A DNA stretch of 63,319 bases, filler included, from Sphacelaria rigidula (lineage: Eukaryota), in assembly GCA_964200075.2 (NCBI GenBank). It is 11 parts of 11 records of this genome, joined end to end, with 100 filler letters (N's around TTAATTAATTAA, not from the genome) between each part and the next. Parts side by side here need not be neighbours in the genome. Positions count along the whole stretch, not along the records: positions 40,360 to 46,024 come from CAXNAA020025444.1; 10 more parts are not named here. One strand, written 5' to 3'. A program made the translations under genes and the position numbers. The notes beneath the pieces were generated by a model. It searched no databases and was not told where the DNA came from. It saw nothing but the letters and a program-made list of their open reading frames with translations. Below, piece after piece: positions 4,826 through 63,319 of this stretch (its first letter is position 1; the number at the start of each line of letters is the position of its first letter).

Positions 4826-5610
4826 TCTATGCATATCGCGGCTCACACCAGGGTTGGAGGTGTTTTGACGTGTCGTGTAACGCGTGAAGTCACCGTGTAC
4901 GTGGCACTGACGGTCGCCTATCGTATGTTTGATCGTAGGCGCATTATTTGAGTGTATAACGAATCTTTCTCTACAGTGTATCATGCATTCGTCCTTGACC
5001 GGATAAGTTTCCCTGCCTTTTCACTGTTTCATTTCAAGTTTTCAAGATTCGAATGCTTGGTCATTCGCGCGACAGCACATACTGTACATACAATCGTTCG
5101 CGAACGAGATTGAACGCCGGCTTGAGTCTTCCTGGCATTGCCCAGACAGAACTACGTCGGTACCCTTGGTTTTACACGTGTATGACAGGTTTACACCGCC
5201 AGGCAATCTACAAATTTCTTTGGCTTGACAAGCTTTTGTTTCACTGTACGCAGACTGATGGATTTTCCACTTTTCCATCAGATCAAACCGCCACGAAACC
5301 AGCCGTGAGCGCAGGACAAATGCACCCGACATGGAAAAAAAACGCTCGCTACTTCGACGAGAAAAAAACTCAAGAGAATAATGAACAGTGAAAAAAAAAA
5401 GAAAATCAACAAAACAACAAAGTAACAGATTGTAGCGCGCGATAATATCACCCGAAAACCTCAACGGAATAGTACATTAAAAAGAATAAAGAACAAAGAA
5501 CAACTAAACAAGAGAAAGGAAGATAATCCTCTCGGCCACTGAGGAAAACGTAGCACATGATACAAAGAATAAACTCAATACAAGCATGCATGACCCCCCC
5601 CCCGCCCCTC

Positions 5611-5666
5611 TGCTCCGTCTCGAAAGGGATGCGTGGTCAATGGTCAAACGACTAAGGCAAGCAACA
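5611..5666 (+). mobile_element. LINE family A 3' fragment, 5'-truncated, preceded by a C-tract
   Basis: TGCTCCGTCTCGAAAGGGATGCGTGGTCAATGGTCAAACGACTAAGGCAAGCAACA matches the 3' end of the LINE at 43890-45000. Oligo-C at 5594-5610. Confidence 0.9.
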
Positions 5667-6056: not shown

Positions 6057-6507
6057 GTGTTAGTGTTATCTTTGTTCCATATAATTGATGTCTACGTCAT
6101 CCAAATGAACAAAGACCAAGAAAAATGGTATGTTCTGGGGGGTCGATTGTTTTATGCCACGTAATCGCCCCTGAAGAGGTTGCTTGCATACAGATGAACA
6201 ACAGCTTCGTATGAGGTAAATTGTGCTCTCTTTACTACCACTTAGCATACTTGGTTCCTGGTGACCCTGTCTCTGCTGTACAACTCTCGAAAGGCAAATA
6301 CTTTATGGAAATTCAAGGCGGAAGTACACAACCCATTGAATGATGACGATACTCTGAAGTGAAATCGCTGTGCTGCGTAAGCAAAGCGCCAACGCTTGGC
6401 GGTGTGGGAATTGAAATACTATAATATTTAAACCATCACAGTAGAAAATCATTTAGTCCACGCCAACATCTTTTACTATCCGCAAAGACTCGGAGGTGCT
6501 TGGCACG

Positions 6508-6787
6508 TGACCCGTGGCTGACTCTGGAAGTGGCGGTACCGGACGGTGGAACAACTCGTTCGAGGCTGCAATTAATGTGCAAGGTGGTTGGCACGCTCGG
6601 GGTCGAGCAATACGCTCCGGCCCGAACAATGTTATTAGGATGTAGCGCATCTTTCATGCAACTCGTTTCGCGCTTGGTGATTGCGAGCCCGGTCCGGCGA
6701 AAACGCGGCGTGCGGCGTGCTCCGTCCCGGCTTTACTGAGATGCGAGGTACATGGCCTTATGGCTCCGGCATGCAAATCATGAGTAC
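6508..6787 (+). mobile_element. Family B non-autonomous retroelement, diverged 3' part
   Basis: GTGGCTGACTCTGGAAGTGGCG...GTCCGGCGAAAACGCGGCGTG...GGCATGCAAATCATGAGTAC aligns to 62990-63264. Followed by ACCCTCTCC. Confidence 0.85.
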
Positions 6788-6867
6788 ACCCTCTCCGTGA
6801 GCGTTCATATCAAGGGGCACATCAACCTTTCGGTTCTGTTTTTGATTCTTGTGCCTCCCTACCGCAG

Positions 6868-10000: not shown

Positions 10001-10135
10001 TAGCGGTGATATTTTCTTCGCAGACATCAAAGGTGAGCACCATTTGTGTCTGCACCGTGAGACTGGTCGATGTTGTTGACCATGACTTTGCGGTGAGCGC
10101 GAAGAGAGAACATGCCTTGCAGAAAACCTCGAAGT

Positions 10136-11355: not shown

Positions 11356-11432
11356 TCTGGCTAGGTGCACCCAGCGAATGCGGCGTACACGCGTGTCGAT
11401 GACGAGACCACCAGAGAGAGAAGCAACGACAG
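11356..11432 (+). mobile_element. 5' part of a copia LTR (same family as 36495-36837), cut by the scaffold end
   Basis: TAGGTGCACCCAGCGAATGCGGCGTACACGCGTGTCGATGACGAGACCACCAGAGAGAGAAGCAACGACAG is closely similar to 36501-36571. Confidence 0.88.
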
Positions 11433-11532: not shown

Positions 11533-11608
11533 CCTCCAATGAGTTGCGTTATTTTCTGGTATCGCCACTTCCAGAGACAGCCACGGCTTATACACTGCAT
11601 CATGGGTT
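11533..11608 (-). mobile_element. Family B internal fragment
   Basis: TTTTCTGGTATCGCCACTTCCAGAGACAGCCACGGCTTATACACTGC is the reverse complement of ~62980-63028. Confidence 0.85.
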
Positions 11609-23064: not shown

Positions 23065-23114
23065 GGATGCGTGGTCAATGGTCAAATGACTAAGGCAAGC
23101 AACAAATGAGTACG
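23065..23114 (+). mobile_element. LINE family A 3' end
   Basis: GGATGCGTGGTCAATGGTCAAATGACTAAGGCAAGCAACAAATGAGTACG, then C10-TATCGTAGGATGACTC. Confidence 0.9.
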
Positions 23115-23197
23115 CCCCCCCCCCTATCGTAGGATGACTCGCTACACGTTCTAGAAGCCTTCCAATGGGAGCAGGAACAAAAACGTCTTTAGAGGAG

Positions 23198-28829: not shown

Positions 28830-28887
28830 CTCGAAAGGGATGCGTGGTGAATGATCGAACGACTAAGGCAAGCAACAAATGAGTACG
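28830..28887 (+). mobile_element. LINE family A 3' end
   Basis: CTCGAAAGGGATGCGTGGTGAATGATCGAACGACTAAGGCAAGCAACAAATGAGTACG, then a C-tract and CCTAGAGTAGCA. Confidence 0.9.
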
Positions 28888-29191
28888 CTCCCCCCCTTCC
28901 CCTAGAGTAGCAGTTGAGAAAGGCAACCGCTTTCGTTCTTCCCGAGGCGCCTTTCAATGTCATAACGTCTTTCACATTCTTCACGCAGAGCAGAGATTCT
29001 GGGAGGTGTAGCATAACCCAGAGTCTCTCTACCGATGTACACGTGATGCTCGTCGGGGCGCTGCGCAGTCCGTGTACTTGTCACAGGTTCCGACGCCCTG
29101 AGGTTTTCTGTCATTCGGGTCAGCAAGATCCCCCCAAATATTGACAACAACGCAAGTGGATTCAACACAATCGCACGAATGCACTGTTCAG

Positions 29192-34594: not shown

Positions 34595-34646
34595 AAGGGA
34601 TGCGTGGTCAACGGTCAAACGACTAAGGCAAGCAACAAATGAGTAC
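34595..34646 (+). mobile_element. LINE family A 3' end
   Basis: AAGGGATGCGTGGTCAACGGTCAAACGACTAAGGCAAGCAACAAATGAGTAC, then GCCCCC-TATCGTAGGATGACTC. Confidence 0.9.
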
Positions 34647-34987
34647 GCCCCCTATCGTAGGATGACTCGGAACATGTTCCAGTCTACAGGGGAGTCACCC
34701 GCCTATAAACTGGGACATGTTTTGTTCCGATCCTGTCCATGCTGTGAGAATGATCCTCAGTTGTCTACCCAATCCGCGGACCTTACCAAAGGTGGATAAG
34801 GTCCCAAAATGGCCAGGTTACAGACCCCAGTGGCCACCCGTGAGTATACGGGATTTGCACAGCGAAGGCCGTTCTAAAATCCTCGCGTTTGGCCCATCTG
34901 ATATGAATTGGCGGGCAAGGCGCGAGGGATTTTGAACAGCCCCTGCTGTCCGAATTTCATAGACTGACAAAGCAGTACAGTATATAT

Positions 34988-35760: not shown

Positions 35761-36494
35761 TTCCCTGGAGCACTGGGGAATGATCGATACCCTCACCTTC
35801 ACCTAACTTGTTATCCATCAAGAGACATGGCACTGAAAAAAAGGCATACAAAAATCAATTTATTACGAGGAGAGGCACTGAATGCACTTCATCTGGATTT
35901 CGCGTCCCGGTTTTGAGAGTGCTTTTGTTGTGCATTGAAATTTGATATGGAGAATCTCTGGGGCATAATACGAGTTTTTTTTTTTTTTCATGCCTCAGGC
36001 TTTTGATGAAAAACGGACATTGCTTTCAGACCATATTTCCCTTTTTCAGCTCATTTTTACAATTATGACTCGAATTTGAGTCTGGAAAATTACAACGGCA
36101 TAGCGAAAAAAAAAGTAGACGTTCATTTTTTCGTGCATTAACAACGTTCTGGTAAATTAACAGTCCGTACTACTAAATCGTCGTCAACTCCTCAACAACG
36201 AAAAACATGACGTCCCATTTTTTGTTGCACCATGCCCTAGTGATTTATTATACGAACGTTCAAGACACAAGTACCAAAATCTGAGCTCGCAAAATAATGT
36301 TCCAAATTTCGATGGCCGACCTTCTGAATCGCCCGTTCTCAGGTCAATTTTTGAGAACTAACAGCGGATCCTAATTTTTGCGGTTTATCTCTAAAATGAG
36401 GTTCAAATGACGTATCGTTTCGCAGGGATGACGTGAAACGGTTACACGGAGCGAAACCATATTTCCCCCCAAATGTCTACAGCAGTTAGGTAGT

Positions 36495-36837
36495 TGTGGG
36501 TAGGTGCACCGAACGAATGCGGTGTACACGCGTGTCGATGACGATATCACCAGAAAAAGAATCAACGACAGAGAGAAAGCTCCTCGTGTTCATGTGAACA
36601 GGTACACTGAGTGAACATGTACATGTGCGGATAGATTAATGCGGACGTCCGGGTACTGGTAGTCGAGTGTGTGTGACTACAGCACCCCGCTCACGGCAGC
36701 TACCGAGCTGCCTGCTGAGCTCACTCAACATCTGATCCCTCAGTCATAGGGTCGACTCAGTCTAGGCACTCTCAGATAACACAAAAGATAAAAATATGTA
36801 TCCTTCGCCACGGGCCACGGAATACTCTAGTGTTACA
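36495..36837 (+). repeat. 5' LTR of the copia element (TG...CA, ~343 bp)
   Basis: Starts TGTGGGTAGG, where similarity to the copy at 11356 begins. Ends TGTTACA, followed by a degenerate PBS-like GGTTGGGCAG and the gag ATG. The 3' boundary is inferred. Confidence 0.7.
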
Positions 36838-39800
36838 ACCGGTTGGGCAGAATGGCGGAACAAGGTGATAGGCCTGCTACAGTTAGGGGTGAGCACGATG
36901 TTACTGAGGAGCTGCGAGAAGTGCGTAGTTAGATCAGTTCCTTGGCTCAGGTCATGCGTGATATGCAGCTAAGCCAAGCTACATTACAGAGTAACATGGA
37001 CAATATGAGGTTAGAACGAGAGGCCGGGGGCGCAGAAAATAACGGCGTCCTCGACAGTGAAGATTCCCATAGTCAACAGGGGGAATTCAACATAAATAGA
37101 ACGGTGGAGCGACGCGGTGCTGGACTTCGACGAGGGCGACGGTACATCGGGAGCTAAGCTGTTCCAGAGAACAGAGCGCGCGACGCAATGGACAACGAGG
37201 CCACCAGTGACGAAGCCAGGGGCTTTGTCCCCACACGTGAGTCAATCCAAATAATGATACAAGTGGAAATGGGTCAGGGGTTCCCGCTTTTCGACAGAAC
37301 GTCCCAAAATTTTCAGGGAAGAGGCGCTGATTATGCTCGGTACAGGCACGAACTGATCAACTTCGCAAGGAGCGGAGGAATTGGCTGAGAGTTCACCATG
37401 GCCGACAATAGTTCTTACGATGTAGATGTCGGTAATCGTGAGATAGAAACGGGGTATCTGGAGAGCAGACACAGGGAGGACACAGTGGCAGCCAACGTAA
37501 GGGTCAGACGAATGCTTGTAGCTAGTTTAGAAGGAAGGAGGGGGTAAGAAATTTTGCTTAGAATCCACTCATCTGCTACGGTTTGGAGAAAACTCGAGGA
37601 TGTCTTTCGCCCCAAAACGAATGGGGGCGAGAACCGCTTTGTTGCAAAAGTTCGATGGAGTCCATATTGGTGTCCGTGATGATCCAGAGCAGAAGCTGCT
37701 CGAGATGGAGGAACTTGCACGTAACCTGAATTCATACGAGGAGCATGAACGACTAAGCGAAAACAATATTATCTTGAAATTCCTCAACGCGTTGCCCTTC
37801 GAGTATCACATCCAGAAGCAATTGCTCGAGGCTCGAGAGGGACCACTGACACGGGAGGTTGTGTTGACTTCGATCCGAAAGCGCTTCGAGTCAACATCTT
37901 TGAAACAGAAACTTGCCCGGGGAAAGAAGTCATCCCCGGGCGACCAGGCTCTCCTTTCCAGGGGTGGAACGGGAAACCGAGCGGTGCGCACCGGAAGGGA
38001 AATCCGGAAAACCCGTAGGGCTCTGGTCAGAAAAACGGCGTGAGCCAGAGTTCGAGTAGCTCTGGGTCGGCATCATCGGACGGCAAACCGGCGACTGGGC
38101 AGCTGCTCCGCTGCCACATTTGCGACGAGAACACGACACATCGAGCCAGGAACTGCCCGAAGAGATACTGCGGGAGGTGCGGTCAGCAGGGGCACACGTC
38201 CTGGGACTGCCCGAGATCGACAGAGAAGAAAGAAGACGCGGTGATGGCGACGGGCGCGGCCGGCGACAGCGACAGCTCCTCCGTCTGTTCGGTGGCGGAT
38301 GGGGAGGCTTTTACCTCTCTTGACACCACGATCAACGGCGACACAGGCGAGTATGCATTGAGTGTTGAGCGGGGGGGTGATGGTCAGCAGGGTGAGGGCG
38401 AACCGTGGATATTTGACACGGGGGCTACCCAGCATTTCTCCCACGATTCCCATGGGATGACGGAGTACAGAGAGTGCAAGGGTGGGGTACTACGGTGCGC
38501 GGGAGGTAGTACTTACCCGATCGTAGGCAGAGGACATTTGTCTCTCGCCTTCAGATCTGACGGACAGGATGTAATCCTAACTCTAGTGGATGTTGACCAT
38601 GTACCTGGTGTCCGTCATCACCTCTTGTCACTCACGAGGATCTAACACATGAGACACACCTACACTGGTTTTCGTGATGGTTTCAGGGTAGATCTCAATT
38701 AAGGAAACGCACTGATAATACCCGGACAACCACGTCAACTCAGAATGTGCGCCCGCCGCCTCGATCAAAGTGGCAGTGACAAGTGTGCTTCGGTATATGC
38801 TATTATTGCCCCGGGGGCTTCGCCTAGCCCCCAGACCGCTGACACAAACGAGTTCCACCGTTTCCACGCTCACGTCCACGAGGATTTACTCAGGAAGACG
38901 GCGAAGCAGCAGGGAAAGCGGAGCTGCAGCCCTGCCGCGGCTGCTCAGAGGCGAAGGGACTGCGGGCACCGATACCAAGATCGACGCACACGAGAGCAGC
39001 TAAGTCAGCGTCTAGGGTGTGTTTGTAGATCTTTCCGGGCCGAAACCAGTCAAGTCTAACGGGGGAAAGTCGTACACGATGATTGTCCGAGATGATCACT
39101 CATGGCACACAAAGCTGTATTTCCTCCGTAAAAAGGATGAGGCAGAGAGATACTTCGCGAAAGACATTGCGTAGGTCTCTCCGAGAAAAGTTGAGATAGT
39201 CCGTAGCGATGACGGGGGTGAATTTTCGGAGGGTGCATTTGGTGAACTGTGCAACAGGAAAAAGATAAAGCAGGAGAAGACACCTGCCGACTCACCCCAG
39301 CTCAGCGATGTTGCAGAGCGAGCGTTAGGTATAATCGAAACAGCAGGCCTTGCGGCCAGAATCCAAGCATCTAAGCTGTACCCCGACGAGCGCATCCCAA
39401 ACGGCGACAGCTTGTGGGCTGAACAGGCGAACTGAGCGTGTCACGCCCTGAACTGTACCGCTACCTTGGCTAACCCGCACCACAAATCACCGCATGAGAT
39501 GTGGTATGGATCACCACCGAAAGGTGATCTCATTCCATTCTTGAAGCCTGGTTTTTGTAGGAGGAAGCGAACAAATAAACTACAGTCGAAGGCCGAAAAA
39601 TGCTGGTACTTGAGCCTAGCCGAGGGCTACCCAAGTGACGCGATGCGAGTTCTGACTGTACGAGGAACTATCTCCGTGACAAGACATGTAACATGGGCAC
39701 GTACGTCCGCTGCTCCCCCCCGCAGACTACAGCAAGTGATCCATCCAGACGCCAGGCGAGCTGAAGGATTCCAGTGTCGATCAAGGCCAGGATGTGGGTA

Positions 39801-40359: not shown

Positions 40360-40426
40360 TTCTTCCATACATTACACAAGAAACTCCTACATATCTTATC
40401 CACGTCCTGTTTCGCCGTCTCTGGCG
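40360..40426 (-). mobile_element. LINE family A 5'-truncated fragment with adjacent C-tract
   Basis: TTCCATACATTACACAAGAAACTCCTACATATCTTATCCACGTCCTGTTTCGCCGTCTCTGGC matches ~44011-44073. G-tract at ~40425-40443 is a C-tract 5' of the element. Confidence 0.88.
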
Positions 40427-42053
40427 GGGGGGGAGGGGGGGGGATGGGAAAGGAGAGACGGAGGAAGCAATGGGGGGGGAAGCAGAAAGCATTCGAATTC
40501 GAAAGTATTAAAAGTTTGATGATATGCGCATGCAACTGCTGGCCACGACGAGCTGTGGACATGAAAAAACCACGGGTGAGGACCGATCGGGAAACGATGC
40601 TTCTCTTGATGAGTGAAGCGTCAAGTACAAAAGAAATGAACAGATCTGCACGACCACGCCACCTCGTGCATGTGGAAATATACCGGTAAAATAACGTCAT
40701 TTGCACACAAATTTTCAATACCACAACCGCTGTCGATACCCGCGAGAATACCGAGGCTGACGATTTTATCAGCACGAGGGAGTGTTGTCCTCCGCATACT
40801 GTTACAAAATCCGAACATTGATGTGTAGTGGGCATCATAGAGTCGTTGCGGGTCGCGGAATAGAAACCGCGGGTCATTGATGCGACACCTCGTGATGAAC
40901 TCGGGCGAGACTATCGTCATCGGCTGAAGGCAGCACTTGCACAAGAACAAAAATCTAAAGTAGACGTGAGTGGCCCCGTACGGCCTGCAAGATCCACGTG
41001 ACCTGTACCGAAAATACCCATCACGCGGTTAAGGCGCGATACCGTAGCAACTTGCGTCGCCGTCCTCATGGCTTCACTAGTAGTGCGACAGCACTAGATT
41101 CGAGAACACATGAACCCTGGCGAAGAGATACGAGTATATTAAATGAATTGCCAGCATGTAAACGCACCTGCCGACATCAATATGGATATGCGCATGTTTC
41201 AAGATATTTGTCGATTGCATCAGGCACCCCAGCGGGGTTAGCTTTGTCGCGACAACCATCGTAAGTCATACCCCCAAAACGTACTGCGGCGCGCGTTAAC
41301 GCGATAGGAGAGTATTGTGAACCCCTTTGCACCAAGACAGGTGTGCGACTGAATCATCACACCCCTACGCTCCAAAGTGTCCGCGTGAAGCATGTTTTTC
41401 TCCAGAGAAGCGCTGGCACCGACACCGCGCAGGCACGCAAGCACGTCCAGCCCTGGTGCGAGCTGACCACAGCACGCTGTAGGTGACGTCAACACAAGCC
41501 ATGATGATTATATTTCAATGATGCGATCCAGATACATGACATATCGCTGTCCGTGGAGAGCACACCCACTGTCGGCGCTGCGAGATTCAAGCCCGATTAT
41601 CCTAACCACCAAACACTTCCCTCCACCGTCAAAAGATCACACACAACGCCAGATCTCGATGACATTTATCCGGCAACAATGGTTGCGGGGTCACTAGAGC
41701 CGCGAGCTATCGTAGCCCTTGAAGAACCCGAGGACGATGAATAGTGTCATCAGATGCAAGGCTGATATCCGCGTGTTCAACGGTCGACCATGTATGCCCA
41801 GCACGTGGTAAGCTAGCGATGTGCACCAGACACGATTCGAAATGAGGCCTGTACGCCTCATGCGCCCGTACTCGTGCTCGAACAAAGCGCTCACACAAAA
41901 ATAAAGATCCAGACAAAATCGCACGTAGTATGAACACGCATAAAAAGCCAAGGATGAAGCCGCGCCAAAAGCAAAAGAGCAAACGAAGCATGACAAGGGG
42001 CAAAGGGAGTAGTACTGAAAAACGCCAAACCAGATCAAAACAAACGTGCGTAC

Positions 42054-42200: not shown

Positions 42201-43307
42201 CTGCCAGAATGTGCAACGAACAAACGGATCACCGCATCACGGTGGGGCTCAGGGCTAGTGCTTGAATACAGGTATAGGGCAAGCAGGTGTTCGACGCTCG
42301 GGACTATTTGCTTCAAGACCGCCTTCGGGGTAAAACGTTGACGGTGACAGTAGGTCATGCTCCAGGATTCGGGTGGAGGAGAGGGTTAGGGTTGGATGGG
42401 TTTGGGGTACTGTAGGGTGTAAGGCGTCGCAAGTTGTCAGGGTCGCGTGTTACATACTGTAGGAACTCGCACTCTTTTCATGAGTTCGTACCGCAATACT
42501 TTGCATGTCTGGAGCATGACATTCACGATGCACGCATGGCGTTTACTGCTTGCAGTGCCGTAGGGCCTGTGACCCAACATACTAAGTTACGTTCGAAGCC
42601 GGTGATTGACGGTTCACCTTCGAAGTGCCTCATTACTTTATTTCTCGCAACATTTTCACCCCACCCCTTCCTCGAGAAGAATTAGAGGTCTCGAGCGAGC
42701 AACCCATCTTCCCCCCCGGTACACACCTCGCATTGTGGCATCAAGAATTCGATCAGCACTACCGCGTAGACTCCCATCAACTAAACTCTCATTGCTAGAC
42801 ACATACGTCCTCACGTCTTCAAAAGACGGAAATCGCATACTTTTGATAAAAAGCCCAAACGGATTCACCACAAAATCGTACCAGCCGTATCTCCCGACCT
42901 CATGGCTCAAGCTGTACCACTTGACCACGGCGGCGCGGCGGCAACTGTTAGCCCTCGCACTTGAAACTTTTCGTGCCCTGTAATAAGGTGGTGTATCTCT
43001 CAATCCACTACGAACCCCGATGTCCCTGCTTCCCTTGTTTTTGGCTGAGGATGAATTTACACACTGGCCAAAAACCACCGTAGAGCGGCATCGACGCCCC
43101 TGCGAGCCCTGCAACAGCTGCACATGCTATCCAACGTACGGCACAACTGACCATATGAACTGAACCTGCTACTGTACTCCCCATGAAGAGTGCGGCGCGG
43201 GCTCCAGGGCAAGGCTCCGGACCCGTTAGGGTGACCCCTGCGTTGAACTAAATCCGTCGTGTTGAATTGGACTTACGTGAACCAAAAGTCATTTTTTGCG
43301 TTATGTC

Positions 43308-43609
43308 GTACTCATGATCATGCATGCCATAGTCATAAGACCGTTGACCAAGCATTCCTACGAAGCCGGGACCGAGCACGCCAGGTATGCGCCGGACCAG
43401 GCTCGCGCTCAATCACCAAGCACGACGCGCCGTGGTGTGTTCTGTGGGTCGCATGAAGGGTGAGCTGCATCCTGCCAAGATTGTTCGGCCCGAAGCCTAC
43501 TGATTATCTTGCATCTGGATGACAGCCTAAAATGAGCTGCTTCAATTTCTGGTCTTGCCACTTCCAGAGACAGCCATGGCTTATGTACTGCCTCATGGGT
43601 GTCTCGCCA
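43308..43609 (-). mobile_element. Family B 3' part (~300 bp)
   Basis: GTACTCATGATCATGCATGCCATAGTCATAAGACCGTTGACC...CACTTCCAGAGACAGCCATGGCTTATGTACTGCCTCATGGGTGTCTC is the reverse complement of ~62968-63264. Confidence 0.9.
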
Positions 43610-43889
43610 TTGAGGGGGGAAAATCTGAAAATACCTCAACGAAGCCGTAATTTGGTACCGCAACAAATTCGGGGTATATCTCTCGATGTACGAAACAATC
43701 AGCAAGAATCCACAGCTTGAACGACAGCCCCCACTATGAGCAACGTGTGAAACACGTCTACTGCTGCACGCTGTGACGATATTTGGCGTGAGTTACCTTG
43801 GTGAAGATGGAGCGAATGATGTGCGAATTGTTCACACGGAGATGGTATTTTCATCCCTCATTTCGTTTCACCGTTTGTCTGGGGAGGGG

Positions 43890-45000
43890 GTGTTCTCATT
43901 TGTTACCCGCTTTGGTCGTTTGACCATTGACCACGCATCCCTTTCGAGACGAAGCACCGTTCCCACTCCCAATAGAGACACCTCCAACATATCGGCGCTC
44001 ATCACGTTCCTTCCATACATCACACAAAAACCTTTTACATATCTTATCCCCGTCCTATTTCGCCGTCTGTGGCACCATCTATCCCTTAGTATAGCCATCG
44101 TTTTCTGCCACTGTCCAGTGCATTAATCGATTTCATACCACCTTCGTTTACTTCTCACACTTTCCCTTCTAGCACGTCACGTTCGTCCTTGTATACTTCA
44201 CATTCTGCAACTACATGAGTTCTGCTCTCTATTGCTTTGCCACAGGGGCAATTCTGTGCATCTGCTTCCTCCTCCTCTCGACTTCTGGTGTACCACACTC
44301 TTGTTTTTGGCAGGCCCAGGTCCCCCACCCGAAATCGCAGTTTCACATTTTTTTGCAGCGTCCGTTGGGTCGTGCAGATATGTTGTCCTACCTATCCCCT
44401 CGCTCAACCCCCTGTATATCTTCAGGTGAATGTTCTTCCTCGTCTACCCTGCGTCTGAGCGTTTCCTTTTCCCTCATTCCCATCATGCCTCTTACTTTGT
44501 CTTGTACCCCGCACCTTCGTCTATGGACAATATCTCGTCTTGATTTCCTCCCATCTCCTTCCATACTTTCTCGACTTTCATCCCACCTTTCTCCAGGCTT
44601 CCCTTTCGTACTTTTCTTCCATACAGCCTTATCAACTACAGCTGGCAATCTCTTTCTCTGCATGTTCTTCAAGCTATATCGCCATCGCAATTTCCTCATG
44701 CCTCTGTTTCAAGTGAGTACATTCCCAACCCTGCTCTCAAAACTGTATAACTCGTCGTTTTCCAGCATCTAAGTATTTTCCTATCTGCCGTCATATGTAC
44801 TGTTTCCAACTTCTTCACCAACTTCGCGTTCCCCTCCCATACCTCTCCTACATATTCCAGACTTGGGATAAGCACGTTCATCAGGATATATCTCTTGATC
44901 CTAGTGTCTGGGTGCGAGTCTCTGAGGATCACGCCCATCCTGGCCATCAGTGCCGTACCCTTCTCTACTTCCTCTGTCCCATAAGTAAAGTCCGTTATGG
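43890..45000 (-). mobile_element. Non-LTR retrotransposon (LINE family A), 5'-truncated ORF2 C-terminal part, decayed
   Basis: Post-RT segment ILMNVLIPSLEYVGEVWEGNAKLVKKLETV...VLRAGLGMY, then KLRWRY...RLPAVV, LRFRVGDLGL, CCHC knuckle CPCGKAIESRTHVVAEC, and AILRDRW. Several frameshifts. Ends CAAATGAGAAC plus a C-tract. Clade (RTE/RTEX-like) is only an inference. Confidence 0.9.
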
Positions 45001-45514
45001 GGGGGGTAGGCCGTACCTCGCCAACGGAGGTGCTCACGATGTCATGGTTAGGTTCATTGAAATTATTTAGTTGTGGAGATGGCCACTGAAAGAAACAAAA
45101 ACAATACAATTGACCTACAACCTTAGAATCGTTGGGTCAAACATGACCAAGCGAGCTAGAATCTTCTGAGAGAGTCCAGCTGTAAGGCTTCCTGAGGTGG
45201 AACAATCCGCTGATCGCCGTTTTCCAGCGAAAATTGGCACTGAGCCGCGGAAATAGGCTTTTCGGACATTTACTTTTTACAACAATGGTGATGTCAAGAA
45301 CTTTGGCAACTATGTTGGCTGATCGAACGAATGGAAAACAAATAGGGGTTCACTGGCGGAAGGTGGCTGAAGATTCTTGTTCCAAAAACATCACGACAGG
45401 GGTCACAAACTAGCCAACCCAGCGTAGCAACACCTCCTGAGAGTGACCGGTGAAAAACCGTACAGTCACAGATGCTGACCGGCTGACCCTGGCGGAAACT
45501 CCGATCTGACTCGC

Positions 45515-45742: not shown

Positions 45743-45934
45743 TCCACTATAGTACAGGATCGCTTACCCATTTCTGGAAATGCTGCATGATGGGAAAAAC
45801 TTCATCAACGATGCTGTCCATCAAGCTGTATACCTGCCACACCGAAAAAATACCAGCATGAGTCGAGGCCAGAAAGGAAATGATTATCGTAGCGGGGGGG
45901 CATGAGTCATGCTACGATAGGAGGGGGGGGGGGG

Positions 45935-45973
45935 TGTACTCATGATCATGCATGCCATAGTCATAAGATCATT
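45935..45973 (-). mobile_element. 39-bp 5'-truncated family B retrocopy with ~19-bp target-site duplication
   Basis: TGTACTCATGATCATGCATGCCATAGTCATAAGATCATT flanked by GATAGGA(G)12 at 45916-45934 and GATAGGA(G)13 at 45974-45993. Confidence 0.88.
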
Positions 45974-46124
45974 GATAGGAGGGGGGGGGGGGGTCGATTC
46001 CACAAAAAAATGGGCTTACAAGTANNNNNNNNNNNNNNNNNNNNNNNNNNNNNNNNNNNNNNNNNNNNTTAATTAATTAANNNNNNNNNNNNNNNNNNNN
46101 NNNNNNNNNNNNNNNNNNNNNNNN

Positions 46125-47006: not shown

Positions 47007-50000
47007 TCAGCCCCCTTTCCGAGGCCGCCCTCCTCCTCTTTTGTCTTTCAACTTGCCCCTGCTTCCAGCACCATCTACGCTGTCGTCGCCCGCTACTAGC
47101 TCCCTAGCGCAGCGAATCATAGATTCGATCTCTGACGGCGTGCCGTGCCCATTGCCTCGCCATCGTACTCTAGCCATCTCGTCCACTAAATACAGGTCGA
47201 GCGACACTCGGCTTCTGATGTCTAAGTTCTTCTGAAGCTGCGTTCATTTTGACGTTTGAAGGGTAACGGCGAAAAGTGGGCACATTGGGGTAACGAAACG
47301 CGGGATTTCGAAGGTCAGAAGAGATGAACTTGTGACTGCCGCACAAAAGTAAGATCCATCGTTGTTGTTCACGGGGTGAGAAAAGGGGTCTGATGCATTC
47401 TCCTACTACCAAACGCCTCCGTTGTAATTCGGGTTTTGGATAGCGCGGTCTGCAGCGCCAAGACCTGCCCACCATCTTGGGCCTGCGTGGGACCGCGGGT
47501 ACTTTTCGTGGGTGAAAATCATTCGGCTGTGGGACTAGGGCGTCCCCCTCGCAGTTTTACCTCGTTTCCCCGCGTGTCCAATAATTTTAGGAACCCTCAT
47601 TGTTTTTCAAACAAGGATCGATCGGGAGCGTTCCGTTCAGGGAAGCGACACTCCAAGGGAGCAAGAAGCCCGTATTAGGAATATTTTTCCAGCTGAAGAT
47701 TGAAGTTTTCCTGTATTCATAAGAAAATGCTTGAAAATAAAAGGACACATTTTGGCGTGGTGACAATCAATGTGCGTCGTACATACCTCTTCGGTTTTGC
47801 CAAAGCGGAAAAAGAATGTGTCCCGCTTGTCGTCGGGCACACCCTTAGCCATTCCAGACACGGCGAGCGTTTTGAGCACCTTCATCAGCCAAGAGTCTAT
47901 CAACGACAGTTGAATGACCTTTGGCACCTTGGGTTGACCCGCAACCACAGACTGGGATCCTGCTCGAAAAAGTTTGTTACAACATGCACACACGACGAAA
48001 TCATTCAGAAACTGAAAAAGACGCCGCTGCGAGTCCCGCTGAGGGACGCCTTCCACTTGATCATCATACTCTTTCTGCATGTATTACGCTACATATTGTG
48101 CATGTGTGGCGGTAAAGAATCGTCAGAGGTCGGCAAAAAACACTGAATTGGCGAATACACTGTTGTTGGAAATAATGCAGACCGAGACATAAAAAAACTA
48201 TAGAGAAATGGGGAATACATGGCGAATTTTTTGCATCCTCTCATCTCACAGTACAGAAAGCTCTCATAAACCGAGATCTCGGCTCCGAAGATATTAAGCG
48301 TGAACGGTCGAGAATATGTCCTGTGAGGATTCAACGAAGCATGGAAAAAACACCCACGAAAGCAAGCACGGAACGATGCGGGAGAGTCGCTCATTCTCGT
48401 CCGAGCACCAAGGACGCCCCCAACTGTCTGAACAAACGAAAATGACTGAAGGAAACTACACATCGCACCCATACATCCTCCTCCTTCCTCACCGGACGCA
48501 ATACCAAAGGCCTCTTCGAAGGGCTCTAGCCACGAGCTCATCATCTGGAAGCCGGAACCACGGTGGAACACCCCCACCAGAGAAACGCCACCCTTCAAAA
48601 CACCAGGGAATCTCACGGTTTTTCCCGAAAGCGACGACGCCTCCAGCGGTGGAAAATCCTGCGCCAGCTTGGCAGAGATGAGCTCTGTGCTTGCGTCAAA
48701 GAATTTTCTGCGGGTGGGGTCGGATAAAATGCAACAGTGGCGATGGCGGGGAGGGAGGGGAGGTGTACTCATGATCTTTCATGTCATCGTCGGAAGACGA
48801 TTGACCCCGCATGCCTACAAAGCAAGGACGGAGCACGCCGGGTTTTCGCCGGACCAGGCTCGCACTCAATCACCAAGCGCGAAGCGCCGTGGTGTGTTCN
48901 NNNNNNNNNGTTCGGCGAGTCGCATGAAGGGTGAGCTGGATCCTGCTAAGATTGTTCGGCCCGAGGCGTACTATCACCTTGCATTTGGATGACAGCTTTT
49001 AATGAGTTGCTTTAATTTCTGGTATTGTCACTTCCAGAGACAGCCACGGCTTATATACTGCCTCGTGGGTGTCTCACCATGTAAACACGACGTGGTACGA
49101 TCATTCCCTTTGCGCGGAGTTGAGGTTTTCCCACGCCGTGCAACAATCGGTAACCTGGTTGCCTAGTTTACGCAGTGAATGGCGTGTTTTACAGCGTCAT
49201 CGCCAACGGATGCCAACCTCATAGGAGGTCCGCCCCTACAAAGCCGGGACGGAGCACGCCGGATTTTCGCCGGACCAGGCTAATTGGGGAGGGGGATAGC
49301 GTAAGATTCATCGAACTGCAAGGGCCCAGTCACGCACTCGGTCGGAAGCATTTCACGGCGTTTTCTGATGTAGTGCCGCCACCGGAGTGTTATTCTACGC
49401 CAAGATTTACGGGCTGCAGGCGGAGTCGCAACTTGCAGTAGCGTCCACCACCAGCCGACCACTGATGTGCTGGCGTACATCGCTGCGGGAGCTAAGGTAG
49501 CCTCGGGGTAACAATCAGCAGTCGTTCGGCCGGCCAAGTAGATTTTAGTGTAGTTCGGTGGGCGTCCAGGTGTGAGACCTCCCACTGCTTCGCAGCCAAT
49601 AACACCAGCACGTGTGATAATCTGACAAAGAAGGTCACTATATCATCCCCACATCACTGCCCATGGCGATACAGAACATTGTGGTGTGCATTATTCATTG
49701 CACTGCGCCATTACTAAACACCAAGCCCTGCAGAAAATCTCCTCTACTTCGAACACAAACGGCACACGGCACACGGCACACAGTACTCCTCTGTTCGCAC
49801 GCACGCACACGCACACGTTGTTGCACTGACCCCTTCCTGACGCTCGCGAGATTGACCACCTCCACCATGTGCCTCCTCTCCTTCAGTTCTATTCTGGGCA
49901 CCTCCCTTGGCGTCTTCACATCTGTCCCCTTCCTCTTTTTTTTCCTGTTATCCAACCTTGCTCGGATTGCATCGTATAATGGCGAATTTTCGACCGCGTT

Positions 50001-51180: not shown

Positions 51181-54100
51181 GATAGATGCTACCTCAGTGA
51201 CCGGCTCTGGTGTGATGTGTTGGTTTGACCCCCCTCTGTCCTGTTTTTCATTCTTCACACTTGCTTTTGAGCAGGCCCGCAGTAATTGCGGCAAATCGTT
51301 CTACTGACGGTAACGGATACGAATGGCAAACAATACCGATGTCCTGAAGGAGAACAAGAAGGTGGGTAGAGGGATCCATGTCGCAGAGAGTTTAATTTTT
51401 GGAGCACAGCCGAGAAGTTTTGCCTGTGTGCGAGAGCCGCCCCCGAGTATGCACGTGACGGTCTCTGTGGACGGTTGAAAAATAAACGTCCGCACCCGAC
51501 GTTCGAACGTTGAAAGCACGATCATCACCAACAACCGCCGGGTGAGTGCAAAATTCAAATAATGTATTGCTACTTGATATAATCGTTTTATTTTGAGGAA
51601 TACACGTGCGATGTTGCCACATATTTTCCTTCGAGAAAAAAAGAATGTACGTCCATAAAGCTGGAAGCTTCGTCCGTCAGGGTTGGTTAACACGTAACAG
51701 TGTTTTCGTAAGATTGAGAGTAAAGAGTGTTTTCGTGAGATTGAGAGTAGATGATACGATTGAGAGTGGCTTTGATTATTCGGTTCAAGNNNNNNNNNNN
51801 NNNNNNNNNNNNNNNNNNNNNNNNNNNNNNNNNTTAATTAATTAANNNNNNNNNNNNNNNNNNNNNNNNNNNNNNNNNNNNNNNNNNNNCCGGGGATGAA
51901 ATTGGGTAAGGCTGGGTTGCCTCTGGTGCCGTGTTCGCTGAACGATGCGGAAATTTCCAGACTGCCAACCCCGGTGCCCCCTGGTGTGTTTGTTGTCGAG
52001 ACGGAGGTACCGGTTCCGTCAGACGAGATGTGTGGAGATTTAGGTGCGGACAAACGCGTGGCTTTTCGGCGTATGTGGGATCGCCTCCCTGTGCATTTGC
52101 GGAGTATAACTTTCGGATCGGAGGACAAATACTGGCAGGTGGAGGATATCGACAAATTAGCGGATGTATAGTGCAAGTTCTCGCATCGGTTTTCGGTTGA
52201 CAAGATGGATTTAGGGTATTGCACGGTGGCCCCGTTCAAGATTGAACTGAAACCCGGGGCTACTCCTACCAAGCAGCGGCCGTACCGTCACGATCCCGCC
52301 CTGCAACAGAAGGTGCAAGTGAAGATTGACAGAATCTTGGCTGGTGGGTTGTTGCGGCGCTCTTATTCCAATTGGAGCTCCCCGCTGGTGGTAGTAAACA
52401 AGAAATATGGGGGGATTCGTTTGACGTGCGACTATCGGAAACTCAACGAAGCCACCCTCATCCCTGTTTTGCCCATCCCCACCATCGATCAACTTGTGGA
52501 TGAACTGGGCAGCGCGAAAGTGTGTACGTGTTTAGATATTCTATCGGGTTATTTCAATATCCCGCTCCATCCAGACACCATCCCCTTCACCGCCGTGTGT
52601 ACGCAGTCGGGTCTGTACGAATGGCTAGTTATGCCGCTGGGGTGCAGCGGTAGTCCGTGTTGGTTCCAATCTATCATGGCGAGGGTGTGTGAAGGGCTGG
52701 AACGGTGCCGCCTTTATATTGACGATATCTGTACGTTCAGCGCAAATGGGACTGAACATGTGAACAACTTGGGCGCTTTTCTGGACCGACTGACAAAACC
52801 TAATTTGAAACTGGCGCCAAAGAAAGCGCACGTGTGGGCGCGTGAAACGCAATTCCTGGATCATCGCATCTCGGCCGACGGTATCGCGCCCGACTCTAAG
52901 AAAGCGGGCGCGCTGCGATTAATGCCTGTGCCGACCAATGTCAGTGAGCTGCGTTCGCTCCAGGGGGGGTTAAGTTATTATCGGAAGTGTATCTCCAAAA
53001 TTGCTGCCCGTACCAAAGCCATTAATGAGTTGTTGAAAAAAGGGGTTGAGTTCAAGTTCACGCCAGAACACGAGGTTACCGTTCGCGAAATTCTGGACGA
53101 TTTGTCTAGCTCTAGGGTTCTGGCTTTTCCAGACTCTGGGGGTGCTACGTCTGGCGGCCGTCCTTTTATGTTGGTTACTGATGCCAGCAAGGAGGAGCTG
53201 GTGGCTGTGGTGGAACAGCGCCAACCAGACGATGTGGTGCGACCTTTATGCTTTTTGAGTCGGAGCACGTTGCCGAATGAACGAAACTGGACGGCCACTG
53301 AGTTGGAAGCGGGTGCGGTCGTGTGGGCGGTGAAGAAAAATCGTCCGCTGTTTAATGGGGTGCCTTTCCAAATTTATAGTGACCACCAGTCTCTGCGCAG
53401 CCTTTTTAGCCTAGCAGAGAAGGTGCCGCGGGTTCAGCGTTGACAGGATTTTCTTCGCGCGTACACGTACGAAATGTTTTACAAACCAGGTGTCGCTAAC
53501 TCCAATGCTGTCATGTTGTCCCGTCTGCCGCAAGCCCATAGTCCGGATGATGTTAGTGGGCAGTTCCAGATCAACGACGCTGCCGATGTCGATGTATACT
53601 TTATTGGCGCAAGTGGTATCATGCCTCGTGATTTTGAACGGCACCATGGTTCTGGTTTGGATGGGTTCCCCGGTGTGTCGGGCGCGCCCCAGGGTTCCAG
53701 TTTGGATGGGCTTCCTCCTCATGGTGTAGTTCAAAGGGGGGGAAGAGAACACCCGGATATGCCGCTGACACTTTCAGAAGTAGCAGACGACGAATGGGAT
53801 CAAGTTCAAAATATTCTCAGACAAAAACGGTCGATGACAGTCTGGAAGGGTCCAGAAGTGGTAAGCGATGACTCGTGACTTCTCCTCCCGAGCGTTACGG
53901 ATGTGCTGTGTGGGCACTGGGAACCGGAATTGTGCTTACATGCTTGCCCGGTTACTGAAGTGGAAAAATATTTGTTACACAAGACGGCGGGTCCGGACGT
54001 TTTGGTAATCCCGGACGGTGAGGCTGGGTCAGCCGAAGAGGACGTTTCGGATACTCCCGCGCCCACTTTAGAGGCGGCGGAGGCATGTAATTTTGGTGAG

Positions 54101-54378
54101 CGTTTGTGCACCAAGTCAGCGGGTGACTGGGTGCACATCCAAGAGACTGATCTGACCGCTCGCACGACTACTATGTACCTCTCACAGGGGGCAATGGTAC
54201 TCTCGAAGGAAGAATAAAAGTCAGTGGATAGTGGTATCGATGTGAAAGAACTGAGGGCTTTAGTGAAACAAGGAGAACTGTTTGAGCTAGCGGATGGTAG
54301 CAAACTGCTGGTGAAAACGTTGACTCCTGCACCTTTCGATTCAGATGATCGTCACCCGGGGGTATTTGAGCGATACCT

Positions 54379-54412
<34 letters not shown>

Positions 54413-54541
54413 ACGGCGGGGGGAAGGGGTGCGAGGGGGTGTGCGGGGGGGGGGGGGCGAGGGGGGAGGAGGGGGGGGGAGGGACGGGNNNNNNNNNNAG
54501 GTATTTTGCGTCGGGTGGTCAGATAGTGGGCGCGGGGGGGT

Positions 54542-54587
<46 letters not shown>

Positions 54588-56449
54588 CGATACCTGGGGG
54601 ACGAACCTGTGCGAAGGTATGTCCCGTTGATGTGAGGCCCTGGGTAATGGACCAGACGCACAAAGAGGCGGTGCACCTTGGTGAAACAGTTACCCTCTCT
54701 TTGTTGCGAAGGTTTTACTGGTGGATCGGCATGAAGGAGAGTGTGAAATTCTGGATTCGGCGCTGCTATTCTTGCCAGGCCAAGAAATCGGATCGTTATA
54801 CGGTGCGTTGGCCTTTGGTCTCGCTACCACTACCCAGTCGACCGGGGCAAATGATGGCGTTTGATTTTCTGGGCCCGTTGCCGGAAACAAAGCGTGGCAA
54901 CAGACACCTCTTCCACATGGTGGATCTGTTTAGTAGGCACGCGGAAGCGTACGCGATTACCGCTGAAGAGCACTCGGCTACGGGGTGTGCTGCAATCCTT
55001 GTGGGAGATTATGTACCACGATGGAGTTGCCCGCACACATTCTTGTCGGATCGGGGATCGGAGTTCACTTCCGCTGCGTGGAAATCGGTCTATGAAATCA
55101 TGGGGGCGGTAAAGCGGTTTACGACTTCGTATCATCCTCAGACGAATGGGATGGTGGAGCGGTTGAACCACACTTTGTGTCAAATGCTGTCTTATTTGGT
55201 GGTGGATGATCAGAGCAACTGGGATGAGTCCCTGATGCATGCGATTTTAGCCCATAACAATAACATCAGTAGGGATACCGGGTTGTCTCCAAATGAGGTA
55301 CATTTTGGACGCTACCTGCGCATGCCCATGACCATTCTAGAAGGTAGGGGGGTGCGGGGGCACCAAGATTTGAAGGCCGACCACTCGGACTATCTCCAGC
55401 TGATGAGAGACCGGCAGGTAAAAGCGTACGAGTTGGTGAGGCAAGAGGGATTTTTTATTAAAGCGAAACATGAAGCCAAGAACCAGGATATTGAGGAAAT
55501 TGCCAACCGCCGGCCCAAATGGGAAGCGGGGCAGTGGGTGTTTGTGTACGATGATAAGAGCACCATCGCCGCGGGAGGTAAGGTCGTGCACGTGGCGGCG
55601 AGTTCAGCCCGGGCGCCTTTGGCTCTGTCAGCGACGCTGGCTCAGTGTTGGACGGGGCCATTCAAACGTTTATTGGTGGGACCGGGGGCAATCTCGGAGG
55701 GTGAACAGGTGGGTTTAAATTTGTTGTTGCTGGAGCTTCGCCGAAACGCACCAGGGGTCAACATGAACCCCAGGGCTTCGGTGGCAAGGTGTAAGCGGTG
55801 CTATAACCCTCGTGAGGGGCCAGACAAGCCGAGGTTTTTGCCTGGGGTTTGAGTCAGTATGTGCTGAACAAATATTCCGAACTGTCGCCTCCTCTGCATT
55901 CAACAACGGAGGATGTGACGAGGGGGTTGGACACGCACCGAATACTCCCTGAAAAACTGGTAAAACACAGGTTGTCGCGGGGTGTGGGTTGTAAGTTGGA
56001 GGTGCAATACCTCACGCGTTGGGGTGGCTTGGATTTTCCTCGGTGGGAGCATGAAGCCGACCTTGAGCAGCACGGTCGGGAGGTAATTCTGAAATATTGG
56101 TTGGGGGAACCAATTCAGGTGAAAGGTGACAACGCGCAGTATCGTAAATACCGCATTCATTTGTCGAGGCGCATAACGGCGCACGAGCGTGGTGGGTATT
56201 ACGTGGCGCCAGGGTATAAGGTGTCGGGGCGCCGAAAAGATGGGCCGGACGTGTATGATCCTGACATTGTTGGTTCCTATGTGTATTGTAAAACGGCCAC
56301 CGCAGATTGGCAGTTGCCCGAGGTGGTGAGACTGGAGGAGAACCCCGGTCAGCAGGAGCGGTCGCACACCTTCCGCATGATGGACTTGGGTCGCAAATAC
56401 GCGGTACACCTCAAGTGGACAGCCCTCGATGAGAGCCGGGGTCGGGCGG

Positions 56450-57654: not shown

Positions 57655-57699
57655 GAGGTCAATGGTCGTATGACTATGGCGTGCATGATCATGAGTACA
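57655..57699 (+). mobile_element. Family B 3' end
   Basis: GAGGTCAATGGTCGTATGACTATGGCGTGCATGATCATGAGTACA followed by CCCCCACCTCCCCCCTCC. Confidence 0.9.
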
Positions 57700-58355
57700 C
57701 CCCCACCTCCCCCCCTCCAAATCTGCGCTCGCTCAATCTAGGCCAGATTCGGGGCGATGTAATGTAGATCGCATTATGAGCAATCTCAATCTGCGTGCTA
57801 ATTCACACCTGGTGGGCTGCATAAAATTGGTCTGACAGACAGACGGCTTGGTCCACAACCTAGGCGAGAAGAGCTAAGCATGTAGCCCTTGCTCCACCCA
57901 TCCAGCGAGGTATCGGCGAGTGAAGACGCAACGCTCCTATTGCTGTGTTTTTTGCATCACATGGAACTATTTTATTTCAAATCCGCTGTTGAAAGTAGAG
58001 GAGATGCCACGCAATATTTGCGTCGTTCACCGATTGCGTTAAAAAAAATCTGGAACACGACGAAAAACGGCGACGTGGCGCGACTTTTTTTTACCGGTCA
58101 GTTCGAGTTGCCAGTAGCACAGCCAAGCTCCACAAGATCTATGCCCACCTCCCGTTACAGCATGCTCTTAACAATTGCGTGTACGACATACAACGAACAT
58201 TGTTGCCAGGGACGGGACAGCTCCAGCAAACCCCGTGTGGAGCTATTGATGTTTTACGGCAGGTCGGTGTGGAGCATACCTCGAGAGTTTCATATGCAGA
58301 TCGTTATAGAACGCGCCTCAGTATCCTGTTGTGGATATTGAAATGGTGCAAAAAG

Positions 58356-62286: not shown

Positions 62287-62699
62287 GTAAGGACGAGGAG
62301 CGCTTGAGAGTAAATGGCCTTGGTGGAGCGGGGGTTCTTTGAACAATATTGTATTGCGTGATCAGTGCGCTCCTAATTATTTTTTGTCGTGATATCGATC
62401 ACTTCGTAGGCGAGGATGGGGGAATAACAGTGCTTTTTCTTAGGATTCCGGCCAACTTTTTTTTTTTCTTTTGTTCCTGTTCCTCCCCTTCCGGCGCCCT
62501 TTTTTCATGATTCTCGTTTTTCAGGTTACTGTCTTGTTTTCTTGTTTTGAGCAGTGTACAAAAAAAATTATACCCTCATGTTTTTGGAACAAAAACGGGC
62601 ACCACATTTTTCGGTTTGGGGCGTGGCGCTGCACGCGGGCGGAACACCCCGAAAATACGTTCCAGCGCCTCAGCCCCACCTCCATGGTACCCGGGAAAT

Positions 62700-63264
62700 A
62701 GGCTGGTCCGGTGGAAACCCGGCGTGCTCCGTCCCGGCTTTGTTTGAGGGACGAATCCCTTATGGGATTGGCGTCGGTTGGCAATGACGCTGTAGAACAC
62801 GCCACTCACGGCGTAAGCTAGGCAGCCGGGCTACCGTTTTGCTTCGCGCGCTTGCGTTTTTGTTGCGGTAACCATGATGGTGGTCGAGCTAGAGCAAATT
62901 TTGCGGGGTGAGAGAACCTCAATTCCGCGCAAAGTGGATGGTCATTCTACGTAGTGTTCAAATTGTTAGACACCCATGAGGCAGTGTGTAACCTGTGGCT
63001 GTCTCTGGAAGTGGCGATACCAGAAAATGAAGCAACTCGTTGGAGGCTGTCATCCAAATGCAAGATGATCAGTACGCTTCGGACCGAACAATCTTAGTTG
63101 GATGCAGCTCACCTTTCACGCAACTCGCCGAACACATCACGGCGCCTCGCGCTTGGAGATTGATTGCGAGCCTAGTCCGGCGAAAACCCGGCGTGCTCCG
63201 TCGCGACTTTGTAGGGAGGCGAGGTCAACGATCACATCACTATGGCATGCAAGATCATGAGTAC
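62700..63264 (+). mobile_element. Family B apparently full-length copy (~565 bp)
   Basis: Starts GGCTGGTCCGGTGGAAACCCGGCGTGCTCCGTCCCGGCTTTGT, repeats this at 63170-63212, and ends GGCATGCAAGATCATGAGTAC followed by a long C-tract. Confidence 0.9.
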
Positions 63265-63319
63265 CCCCCCCACCCCTCCGGCCCCCCCCCCGACCCCCGC
63301 CCCCCCCCCCCCCTCCCCC

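Follow-up and report, generated by a model that had tools for sequence, protein, structure and literature searches.

C/G homopolymer runs flank the insertions of an APE-type LINE and its non-autonomous partner in the brown alga Sphacelaria rigidula

At one locus of Sphacelaria rigidula, a 39-nt retroelement fragment is enclosed by two copies of a short sequence that opens with a long run of C. The locus raises the question of whether such runs belong to the target, to the element or to the assembly, and whether the element behind the fragment prefers to insert at them. The window, by which we mean the whole stretch of 63,319 nucleotides that was analysed, consists of 11 pieces of 5665-5666 bp each, linked by N44-TTAATTAATTAA-N44. 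Together with three outside contigs (L001, L002 and L003) it forms the evidence base. All-against-all BLAST of the window and direct reading identified copies of two dispersed families, A and B (Table 1); several of them lie at piece ends and have one visible junction each. The copies terminate in ...ATGAGTAC. This shared tail end occurs 11 times in the window against 1.45 expected, and nine of the 11 occurrences are element tails.

Table 1. Family A and family B copies in the window, with their flanking runs, target site duplications (TSDs) and TATCGTAG boxes
Positions	Strand	Feature	Remarks
5594..5666	+	C10+GCCCCTC (5594-5610), then 5'-truncated family A copy (5611-5666)	Copy reaches piece end
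6507..6797	+	Old family B copy (6507-6788)	67% identity; 3' flank ACCCTCTCC, weakly C-rich
11533..11607	-	Family B internal fragment	At piece start; without readable junction
23065..23114	+	Family A, last 50 nt, including stop codon TGA	At piece start; 100% to L003 tail
23115..23154	+	C10 run and 30-nt TATCGTAG box	After family A tail
28830..28888	+	Family A, last 59 nt	At piece start; then TC7TTCCCC at 28889-28905
34595..34647	+	Family A, last 53 nt	At piece start
34648..34682	+	C5 run and 30-nt TATCGTAG box	After family A tail
40360..40443	-	Family A internal fragment (40360-40425)	5'-truncated right after C9TC8 (40426-40443)
43308..43619	-	5'-truncated family B copy (43308-43613)	C6 at 5' end (43614-43619); 3' flank without C-run
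43881..45006	-	5'-truncated family A copy, 1.1 kb (43891-44998)	C5TC4 on 3' side (43881-43890); C8 on 5' side (44999-45006)
45885..45919		TATCGTAG box region	TATCGTAGC-G7-CATGAGTCATG-CTACGATA
45916..45934	-	TSD copy at 3' junction	C12-TCCTATC on element strand (plus strand GATAGGA+G12)
45935..45973	-	Family B 3'-terminal fragment, 39 nt	Ends ...ATGAGTACA; BLAST and direct reading
45974..45993	-	TSD copy at 5' junction	C13-TCCTATC on element strand (plus strand GATAGGA+G13)
48748..49300	-	Full-length family B copy (48765-49288), with N10 gap	Between C/T-rich runs; 3' flank ACCTCCCCTCCCTCCCC, 5' flank CCCCCTCCCC
57655..57718	+	Family B, last 45 nt (57655-57699)	At piece start; then CCCCCACCTCCCCCCCTCC
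62670..63319	+	Full-length family B copy (62693-63264), 572 nt	CCCCACCTCC 15 nt upstream; C8ACCCCTCC... downstream into C-rich piece end

The 39-nt fragment is 95% identical to the family B tail at 43308-43347. A direct duplication, 19 nt on one side and 20 nt on the other, surrounds it, which confirms the clean TSD of C12-TCCTATC that had been claimed for this family B end in an earlier note on the same DNA (45916-45993). A tandem repeat at these positions was ruled out, since the 39-nt insert is present once only. Because C13 on one side and C12 on the other are both followed by TCCTATC, the C-run at this locus was already in the target.

The coding frame of family A is represented in the window only by the decayed 1.1-kb copy, and public contig collections were therefore scanned with the 26-nt A tail, yielding the three outside contigs. 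Each has one long open frame on the tail strand, of at least 1253 aa in L001 (5'-open), 1426 aa in L002 and 1382 aa in L003. Pfam domains Exo_endo_phos (E 3e-11 to 7e-13), Exo_endo_phos_2 and RVT_1 (E 8e-33 to 1e-30) are found in all three, with the endonuclease N-terminal to the reverse transcriptase in a single ORF and a CCHC motif at the C-terminal end. A conserved stretch of ~130 aa without Pfam match precedes the endonuclease (ORFs at 122-4399 of L002 and 116-4261 of L003, both on the minus strand). No separate ORF1 was found in the 0.7-1.0 kb upstream of the LINE ORF in L002 and L003; the 5' region of L003 carries tandem repeats. The frame ends in ...KASNK-stop, 5 nt ahead of the C-run. 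As its TGA falls inside the terminal ...AAATGAGTACG, within the last 8 nt of the element, there is practically no 3' UTR. Runs of C8, C10 and C13 follow directly after ...GAGTACG in L001, L002 and L003, respectively.

L001 and L003 are 95% identical over 3.8 kb and have unrelated flanks, and thus represent independent insertions. L002 is 78% identical, and it can be aligned with L003 over at least 5.0 kb, a stretch that does not extend to the 5' ends of the element. Within the window, 43881-44962 aligns to the outside elements at 76-80% identity. The good alignments begin at 44986-44998, so the C8 at 44999-45006 marks the 5' junction; a continuation of LINE coding sequence past this run was considered, and only one weak, gap-rich tblastn extension (P0007) was obtained for it. 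The start points of the family A copies differ (5611, 40425 and 44998), and all seven A tails end in ATGAG(T/A)AC. Besides the clean 19/20-nt TSD of the 39-nt B copy, three approximate C-run TSDs are seen across A and B copies. Variable 5' truncation, a fixed 3' end, TSDs and the lack of LTR or TIR are the hallmarks of a LINE. Family A is a real LINE, as the note had implied by calling it one, and is of the APE type; the class of its endonuclease, for which the note had named APE and RLE as the choices, is settled by Exo_endo_phos in all three outside copies.

The best named homologues of the family A protein are Ectocarpus proteins annotated as 'unnamed protein product', at 48-71% identity. 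Brown algae give the best matches for both the LINE protein and a host exon of the window; the exon shares 84-88% identity with proteins from Pylaiella, Ectocarpus and Scytosiphon. A PDB search with the family A reverse transcriptase returned only L1 ORF2p (E 2e-21) and R2 (about 1e-21) and is uninformative on the clade. Viral contigs gave no match to the tail pattern or to the LINE protein, and the MAG that contains L003 holds a single copy of the element. At L003 1-95 (minus strand), ~25 nt after the C13 of the LINE, lies a family B-like fragment with 39 of 57 nt identical to B ~106-163; the arrangement suggests that the LINE landed next to an older B copy, at its 5' junction. It is also noted that AAATGAGAACAC at 34440-34491 resembles the variant A tail at 43891, with G13 at the piece end 25 nt further on, and may be a decayed tail remnant.

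Family B is ~570-600 bp long. Its last 60-75 nt are common to family A (64-72% identity over the last 75 nt), and ~47 nt of its 5' end are repeated ahead of the tail. ARAGORN found no tRNA gene in family B, and its copies had no Rfam match at E<=1; the family does not show the Pol III-type head, from tRNA, 5S or 7SL, that defines a SINE. Family B is a non-autonomous partner that uses the 3' end of the LINE, and it is presumably mobilised in trans by family A. A conserved 3' RNA structure was also sought. RNAalifold of eight tails gave only 14 pairs, three of them with compensatory change, at -7.6 kcal/mol, and the candidate was dropped.

C-runs recur at the junctions of both families. Ten copies in the window and the three outside loci provide 13 3' junctions, ten of which have a run of at least five C's within 14 nt, as do 1.4% of 14-nt windows in the background (binomial p ~7e-17). 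All seven family A 3' junctions have a C-run. The remaining 3' flanks are C/T-rich without C5 at 48748-48764 and 6789-6797, and not C-rich at 43300-43307. On the 5' side, C5 is found within 30 nt upstream at six of seven junctions, against a background of 3.1% (p ~6e-9), the seventh being that at 62693; the set leaves out 6507 and 11607, whose boundaries are unclear, copies running off pieces, and the three outside loci. The richness of the flanks in C relative to background had been set beforehand as a check on the idea, and the enrichment at both kinds of junction is seen in a sample that is small, with both ends visible in only five copies. In these five, the 5' and 3' flanks are C13TCCTATC and C12TCCTATC for the 39-nt copy, C8 and C5TC4 for 43891-44998, CCCCCTCCCC and CCTCCCCTCCCTCCCC for 48765-49288, CCCCACCTCC and CCCCACCCCTCC for 62693-63264, and C6 and no run for 43308-43613.

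The C-tracts that the earlier note had listed are all present, on the 3' side at 6788, 43881-43890, 48748-48764, 57700-57718 and from 63265 onward, and on the 5' side at 5594-5603, 40426-40443, 44999-45006 and from 49289 onward. The copy at 43308, which it had singled out as an exception, is one on the 3' side; its 5' side does carry a run. The absence of poly(A) from every A or B copy also holds. The 5' runs precede copies that are cut at different points of A and B, which means that they are not element sequence. Runs at both ends, with a TSD that contains the run in the cleanest copy, indicate that the run is at least partly target.

G/C runs are in strong excess in the window as a whole. 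A first-order Markov model predicts 6.9 runs of at least 7 nt, with no more than 14 in any of 200 simulations, and 36 are present; for runs of at least 8 nt, 2.2 are expected and 23 are present, only nine of which adjoin an A or B junction. At 23433-23442 a C10 stands where a 70%-identical paralogue (23196-24128 ~ 25106-26043; site 25342) has CC. This is an orphan homopolymer, without element or TSD, so C-runs can arise without a visible element.

The sequence that follows some of the runs raises a second question. TATCGTAG occurs seven times in the window against 1.10 expected, a count reached in none of 100 shuffles, and six of the seven occurrences abut a G/C run of at least 5 nt. The 16-mer TATCGTAGGATGACTC is present after C10 (23115-23140) and after C5 (34648-34668), where the earlier note had reported a shared motif behind family A ends; the degenerate version that it saw at ~28888-28912 (28889-28912) has no statistical support. 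Behind the run, the flanks 23125-23154 and 34653-34682 match in 26 of 30 nt, and beyond this point their similarity ends. A box of this kind (~16-30 nt) follows the run at four of the 13 3' junctions (23125, 34653, 45919 on the minus strand, and a variant in L002), and the context of the C-run otherwise differs among junctions. At 45885-45919 the box region is a near-palindrome broken by a 7-nt homopolymer, and the TSD of the 39-nt copy takes in its final 4 nt. Compared with 23125-23145, it contains an additional ATG+C7 on the element strand between GACTC and GCTAC (45901-45911 and 45894-45900); the extra C7 is a second orphan C-run insertion.

Did the box lie in the target, as the earlier note had held, or did it come with the element? 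Only the 39-nt copy allows a judgement, and there the answer is the target: since TCCTATC forms part of its TSD, the beginning of the box must have been in place before this copy arrived. This part of the claim stands. The wider claim of a repeat that serves as target finds no empty copies: each of the three Cn-TATCGTAG sites in the window is taken up by an element tail, and the exact C5-TATCGTAGSATGACTC pattern had no match in metagenome contigs. We lean towards a target-side repeat, while giving this reading somewhat less than an even chance. A derivation from the element, as a 3' extension past an internal C-run, as a 3' transduction or as the 3' end of an older and extremely truncated copy whose C-run received the new insertion, is doubtful, though it would explain the occupied sites, and the metagenome contigs that lack the exact pattern gave two matches to the A tail. 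Its other attractions are that 23125-23154 and 34653-34682 share the point at which the box stops, and that a variant is also found behind the C10 of L002, a member of a subfamily with just 78% identity. An element-borne box, however, should not appear within the TSD of the 39-nt copy, nor after A tails and B tails alike, and L001, L003 and the copy at 43881 are without it. Transduction primed by a C-run would need a run after the box, and there is none at 23155 or 34683. The curated Ectocarpus consensus, according to its table entry, also ends at (C)n (PMC12477816).

TATCGTAG next to a homopolymer also forms termini that are independent of the LINE, which likewise speaks against an element-derived box. 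Such termini belong to a 249-bp MITE-like element at 10228-10476. Its inverted ends, of 25/26 nt, follow the pattern GACACTTKCTACGATA-(G)-C7-10, the left one being GACACTTGCTACGATA-C10 and the right one G7-C-TATCGTAGAAAGTGTC. This element lies within the second copy of a local duplication (10135-10164 ~ 10199-10228); set against the first copy, GCTGGCGGGGGATCT, its TSD would be 3-4 bp long (YGGG). Beyond the box, the flank at 34653 may resemble that of L002, with z 4.6 in shuffles but no significance by BLAST. A further idea, that the box is the 5' end of a third retroelement between the C10 runs at 23115 and 23433, was rejected, because the sequence from 23196 onward is another repeat, whose paralogue is without the upstream 71 nt and the run.

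Shared architecture and homology to Ectocarpus would place family A in the RTE-X group. We propose that family A is an APE-type RTE-X LINE with family B as its partner, and that both probably insert by target-primed reverse transcription (TPRT) at G/C runs, duplicating the run. The preference for C/G runs, which the earlier note had put forward, and a C-run-associated, target-primed insertion with the run duplicated are well supported by the flanking runs and by the TSD that contains the run. The first nick would fall in the bottom strand at the 3' end of the G-run, a position immediately 5' of the C-run as read on the top strand. The 3'-OH of the G-run would then prime cDNA synthesis on the RNA end ...AUGAGUAC(G/A), and read-through RNA might in addition carry C's that anneal to the G-run. 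If the top strand were cut 0-7 nt past the run, the entire run (about 8-17 nt), at times with a few more bases, would be duplicated as the TSD.

A bolder version, which we offer only as speculation and consider on balance unlikely, is that the RTE-X endonuclease reads the G.C homopolymer as a structure and cuts at both of its borders. Each jump would then copy its own landing pad, and the TATCGTAG-box repeat, with its subterminal homopolymer, would be the preferred pad. If true, this self-seeding would explain why G/C runs are 5- to 10-fold more frequent in the genome than expected.

The main competitor of insertion at pre-existing runs is that the C-run is chiefly a tail of the element, a (C)n derived from the RNA, from slippage of the reverse transcriptase or from non-templated addition, with a role like that of the poly(A) of L1. 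Target choice would then be loose, and the 5' C-runs would result from landing in earlier tails or in orphan C-runs. The table of the Ectocarpus study does give (C)n as the 3' terminus of RTEX-1 (PMC12477816). The 3' C-rich stretch also exceeds the 5' one in two copies (17 vs 10 nt at 48748/49289, much longer at 63265), in assemblies from short reads, where homopolymer lengths are unreliable. The C10 at 23433, which replaces CC of the paralogue with no element present, and the general excess of G/C runs would fit a process that makes runs. However, the same TCCTATC after C13 and after C12 in the cleanest copy puts the run in the target, and C8 against C5TC4 at 44999/43881 leaves no space for a long tail. 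With a run at six of seven 5' junctions, nearly every insertion would still have to pick a C-run. We therefore regard the tail as quite unlikely to be the main source of the runs; a (C)n tail, element-borne or made by the reverse transcriptase, that adds to a preference for C-run targets is possible.

That the runs stem from errors of sequencing or assembly (poly-G noise, for instance, or repeats that were collapsed) is extremely improbable: noise of this sort is seen in G33/G43 around N10 at 54379-54584 and in the C-rich stretch at 63265-63319, and several copies sit at piece ends, but the runs at the junctions have unique sequence on either side and are internal to their pieces, they are found again and again at defined ends of the elements, are present in three independently assembled outside contigs, and were recorded by manual curation of the chromosome-level Ectocarpus genome (PMC12477816). 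The block at 54379-54584 (G33 ... N10 gap ... G43) lies between the RT/RNaseH and integrase regions of a gypsy element and has GCGATACCTGGGGG on both sides. Poly-G noise in the reads, joined up during scaffolding, is its most likely origin; alternatively, it could be a C/G insertion that consists of a tail alone and has a TSD. Poly-G/C assembly noise is also what the piece end at 63265-63319 looks like.

The earlier note had taken the association with C-runs to be undescribed, and this claim fails. In the supplementary table of the Ectocarpus study, RTEX-1 is entered with 'single EN-RT ORF; (C)n 3'', a 'C-rich' TSD and a length of 5867/5511 bp, and RTEX-2 with a single EN-RT ORF, '(C)n termini/TSD' and a 'C-rich' TSD (PMC12477816, Suppl. 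file 1). The same table lists the non-autonomous RTEX-N1 with 607 bp, '5' head unknown', '60 bp 3' end 83% RTEX-1/RTEX-2' and again a 'C-rich' TSD (PMC12477816, Suppl. file 1), so that (C)n termini and C-rich TSDs are on record there for RTEX-1/2 and their non-autonomous partners. The TE families with the highest abundance in Ectocarpus are the RTE-X elements together with their partners, at >16,000 copies; the most abundant family is RTEX-N1_Ec32, a non-autonomous element of ~600 bp with a 3' end common to RTEX-1 and RTEX-2, whose 5' head the Ectocarpus authors too could not assign (PMC12477816).

Families A and B look like the counterparts of RTEX-1/2 and RTEX-N1, judged by shared architecture and by the table descriptions. 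As in RTEX-1/2_Ec32, the families here have a single EN-RT ORF, a length >5 kb, (C)n at the 3' end or at both termini, a C-rich TSD, a brown-algal host and a high copy number, contigs breaking in the element (PMC12477816). Family A has these table features, with an ORF of 1382-1426 aa and a C-run at each 3' junction, and family B those of an RTEX-N1-type partner, with its 572 nt and the tail shared with A. The likeness of family B extends to RTEX-N2_Ec32 as well as RTEX-N1_Ec32, in the ~600 bp, the unknown 5' head and the shared 3' ~60 bp (PMC12477816). In contrast to RTEX-1/2_Ec32, the elements here come from another brown alga, and their LINE protein is merely 48-71% identical to the named Ectocarpus proteins. 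The Ectocarpus account, as its table presents it, also differs in consisting of notes, without junction analysis, a TATCGTAG box or an ORF that extends to the 3' end (PMC12477816). The terms 'C-rich', 'target specificity' and 'insertion preference' are absent from the main text, as far as available, and the C-run habit is recorded there rather than analysed (PMC12477816). Full-text literature searches found no published analysis of a LINE that targets C/G homopolymers. What is new here is the junction-level evidence, the ORF that runs to the very 3' end and, as a lead, the TATCGTAG box.

If a LINE inserts into G/C homopolymers and doubles them in the process, this would account for the places in which these elements build up and for the high frequency of such runs in brown-algal genomes. 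It would also bring a mononucleotide target onto a list on which rDNA, snRNA, tRNA, telomeres and microsatellites already stand. Kibi/Koshi, Waldo and Mino are microsatellite-specific non-LTR retrotransposons. The (TG)n-specific Togen is another (PMC4640811). Families A and B share with these elements a simple-repeat target rather than a gene, the lack of poly(A), the repeat at both ends and the multiplication of the target by insertion. They differ in that the target here is a mononucleotide G/C run, whereas theirs is a di- to tetranucleotide repeat; in the clade, presumably RTE-X as opposed to NeSL/Tx1/R1; and in a specificity that seems to be a strong preference rather than a fixed site. 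Compared with strict targeting of the R1/R2/Tx1-like kind, a C-run is present here at 10-12 of 13 3' junctions in varying context, and the box at four of 13.

Human L1 nicks its target at TTTT/AA, and the T-run primer pairs with the poly(A) tail. The elements described here resemble L1 in the APE-type endonuclease, in the probable TPRT from a homopolymer primer, in 5' truncation and in a TSD that begins with the homopolymer, which makes the boundary between tail and target ambiguous. Unlike in L1, the homopolymer is C/G, there is no polyadenylation signal, poly(A) or 3' UTR, and the TSD is essentially the run itself.

As for the remaining make-up of the window, a Ty3/gypsy RT-RNaseH-integrase region occupies 52172-55852 and a copia-type fragment 38019-38645, and exons for LRR, ATP10 and enoyl-CoA-hydratase are present. 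An unclassified dispersed repeat of ~0.9 kb, at 70-88% identity, was observed at 23196-24128, 25106-26043, 36476-36586 and 11358-11432.
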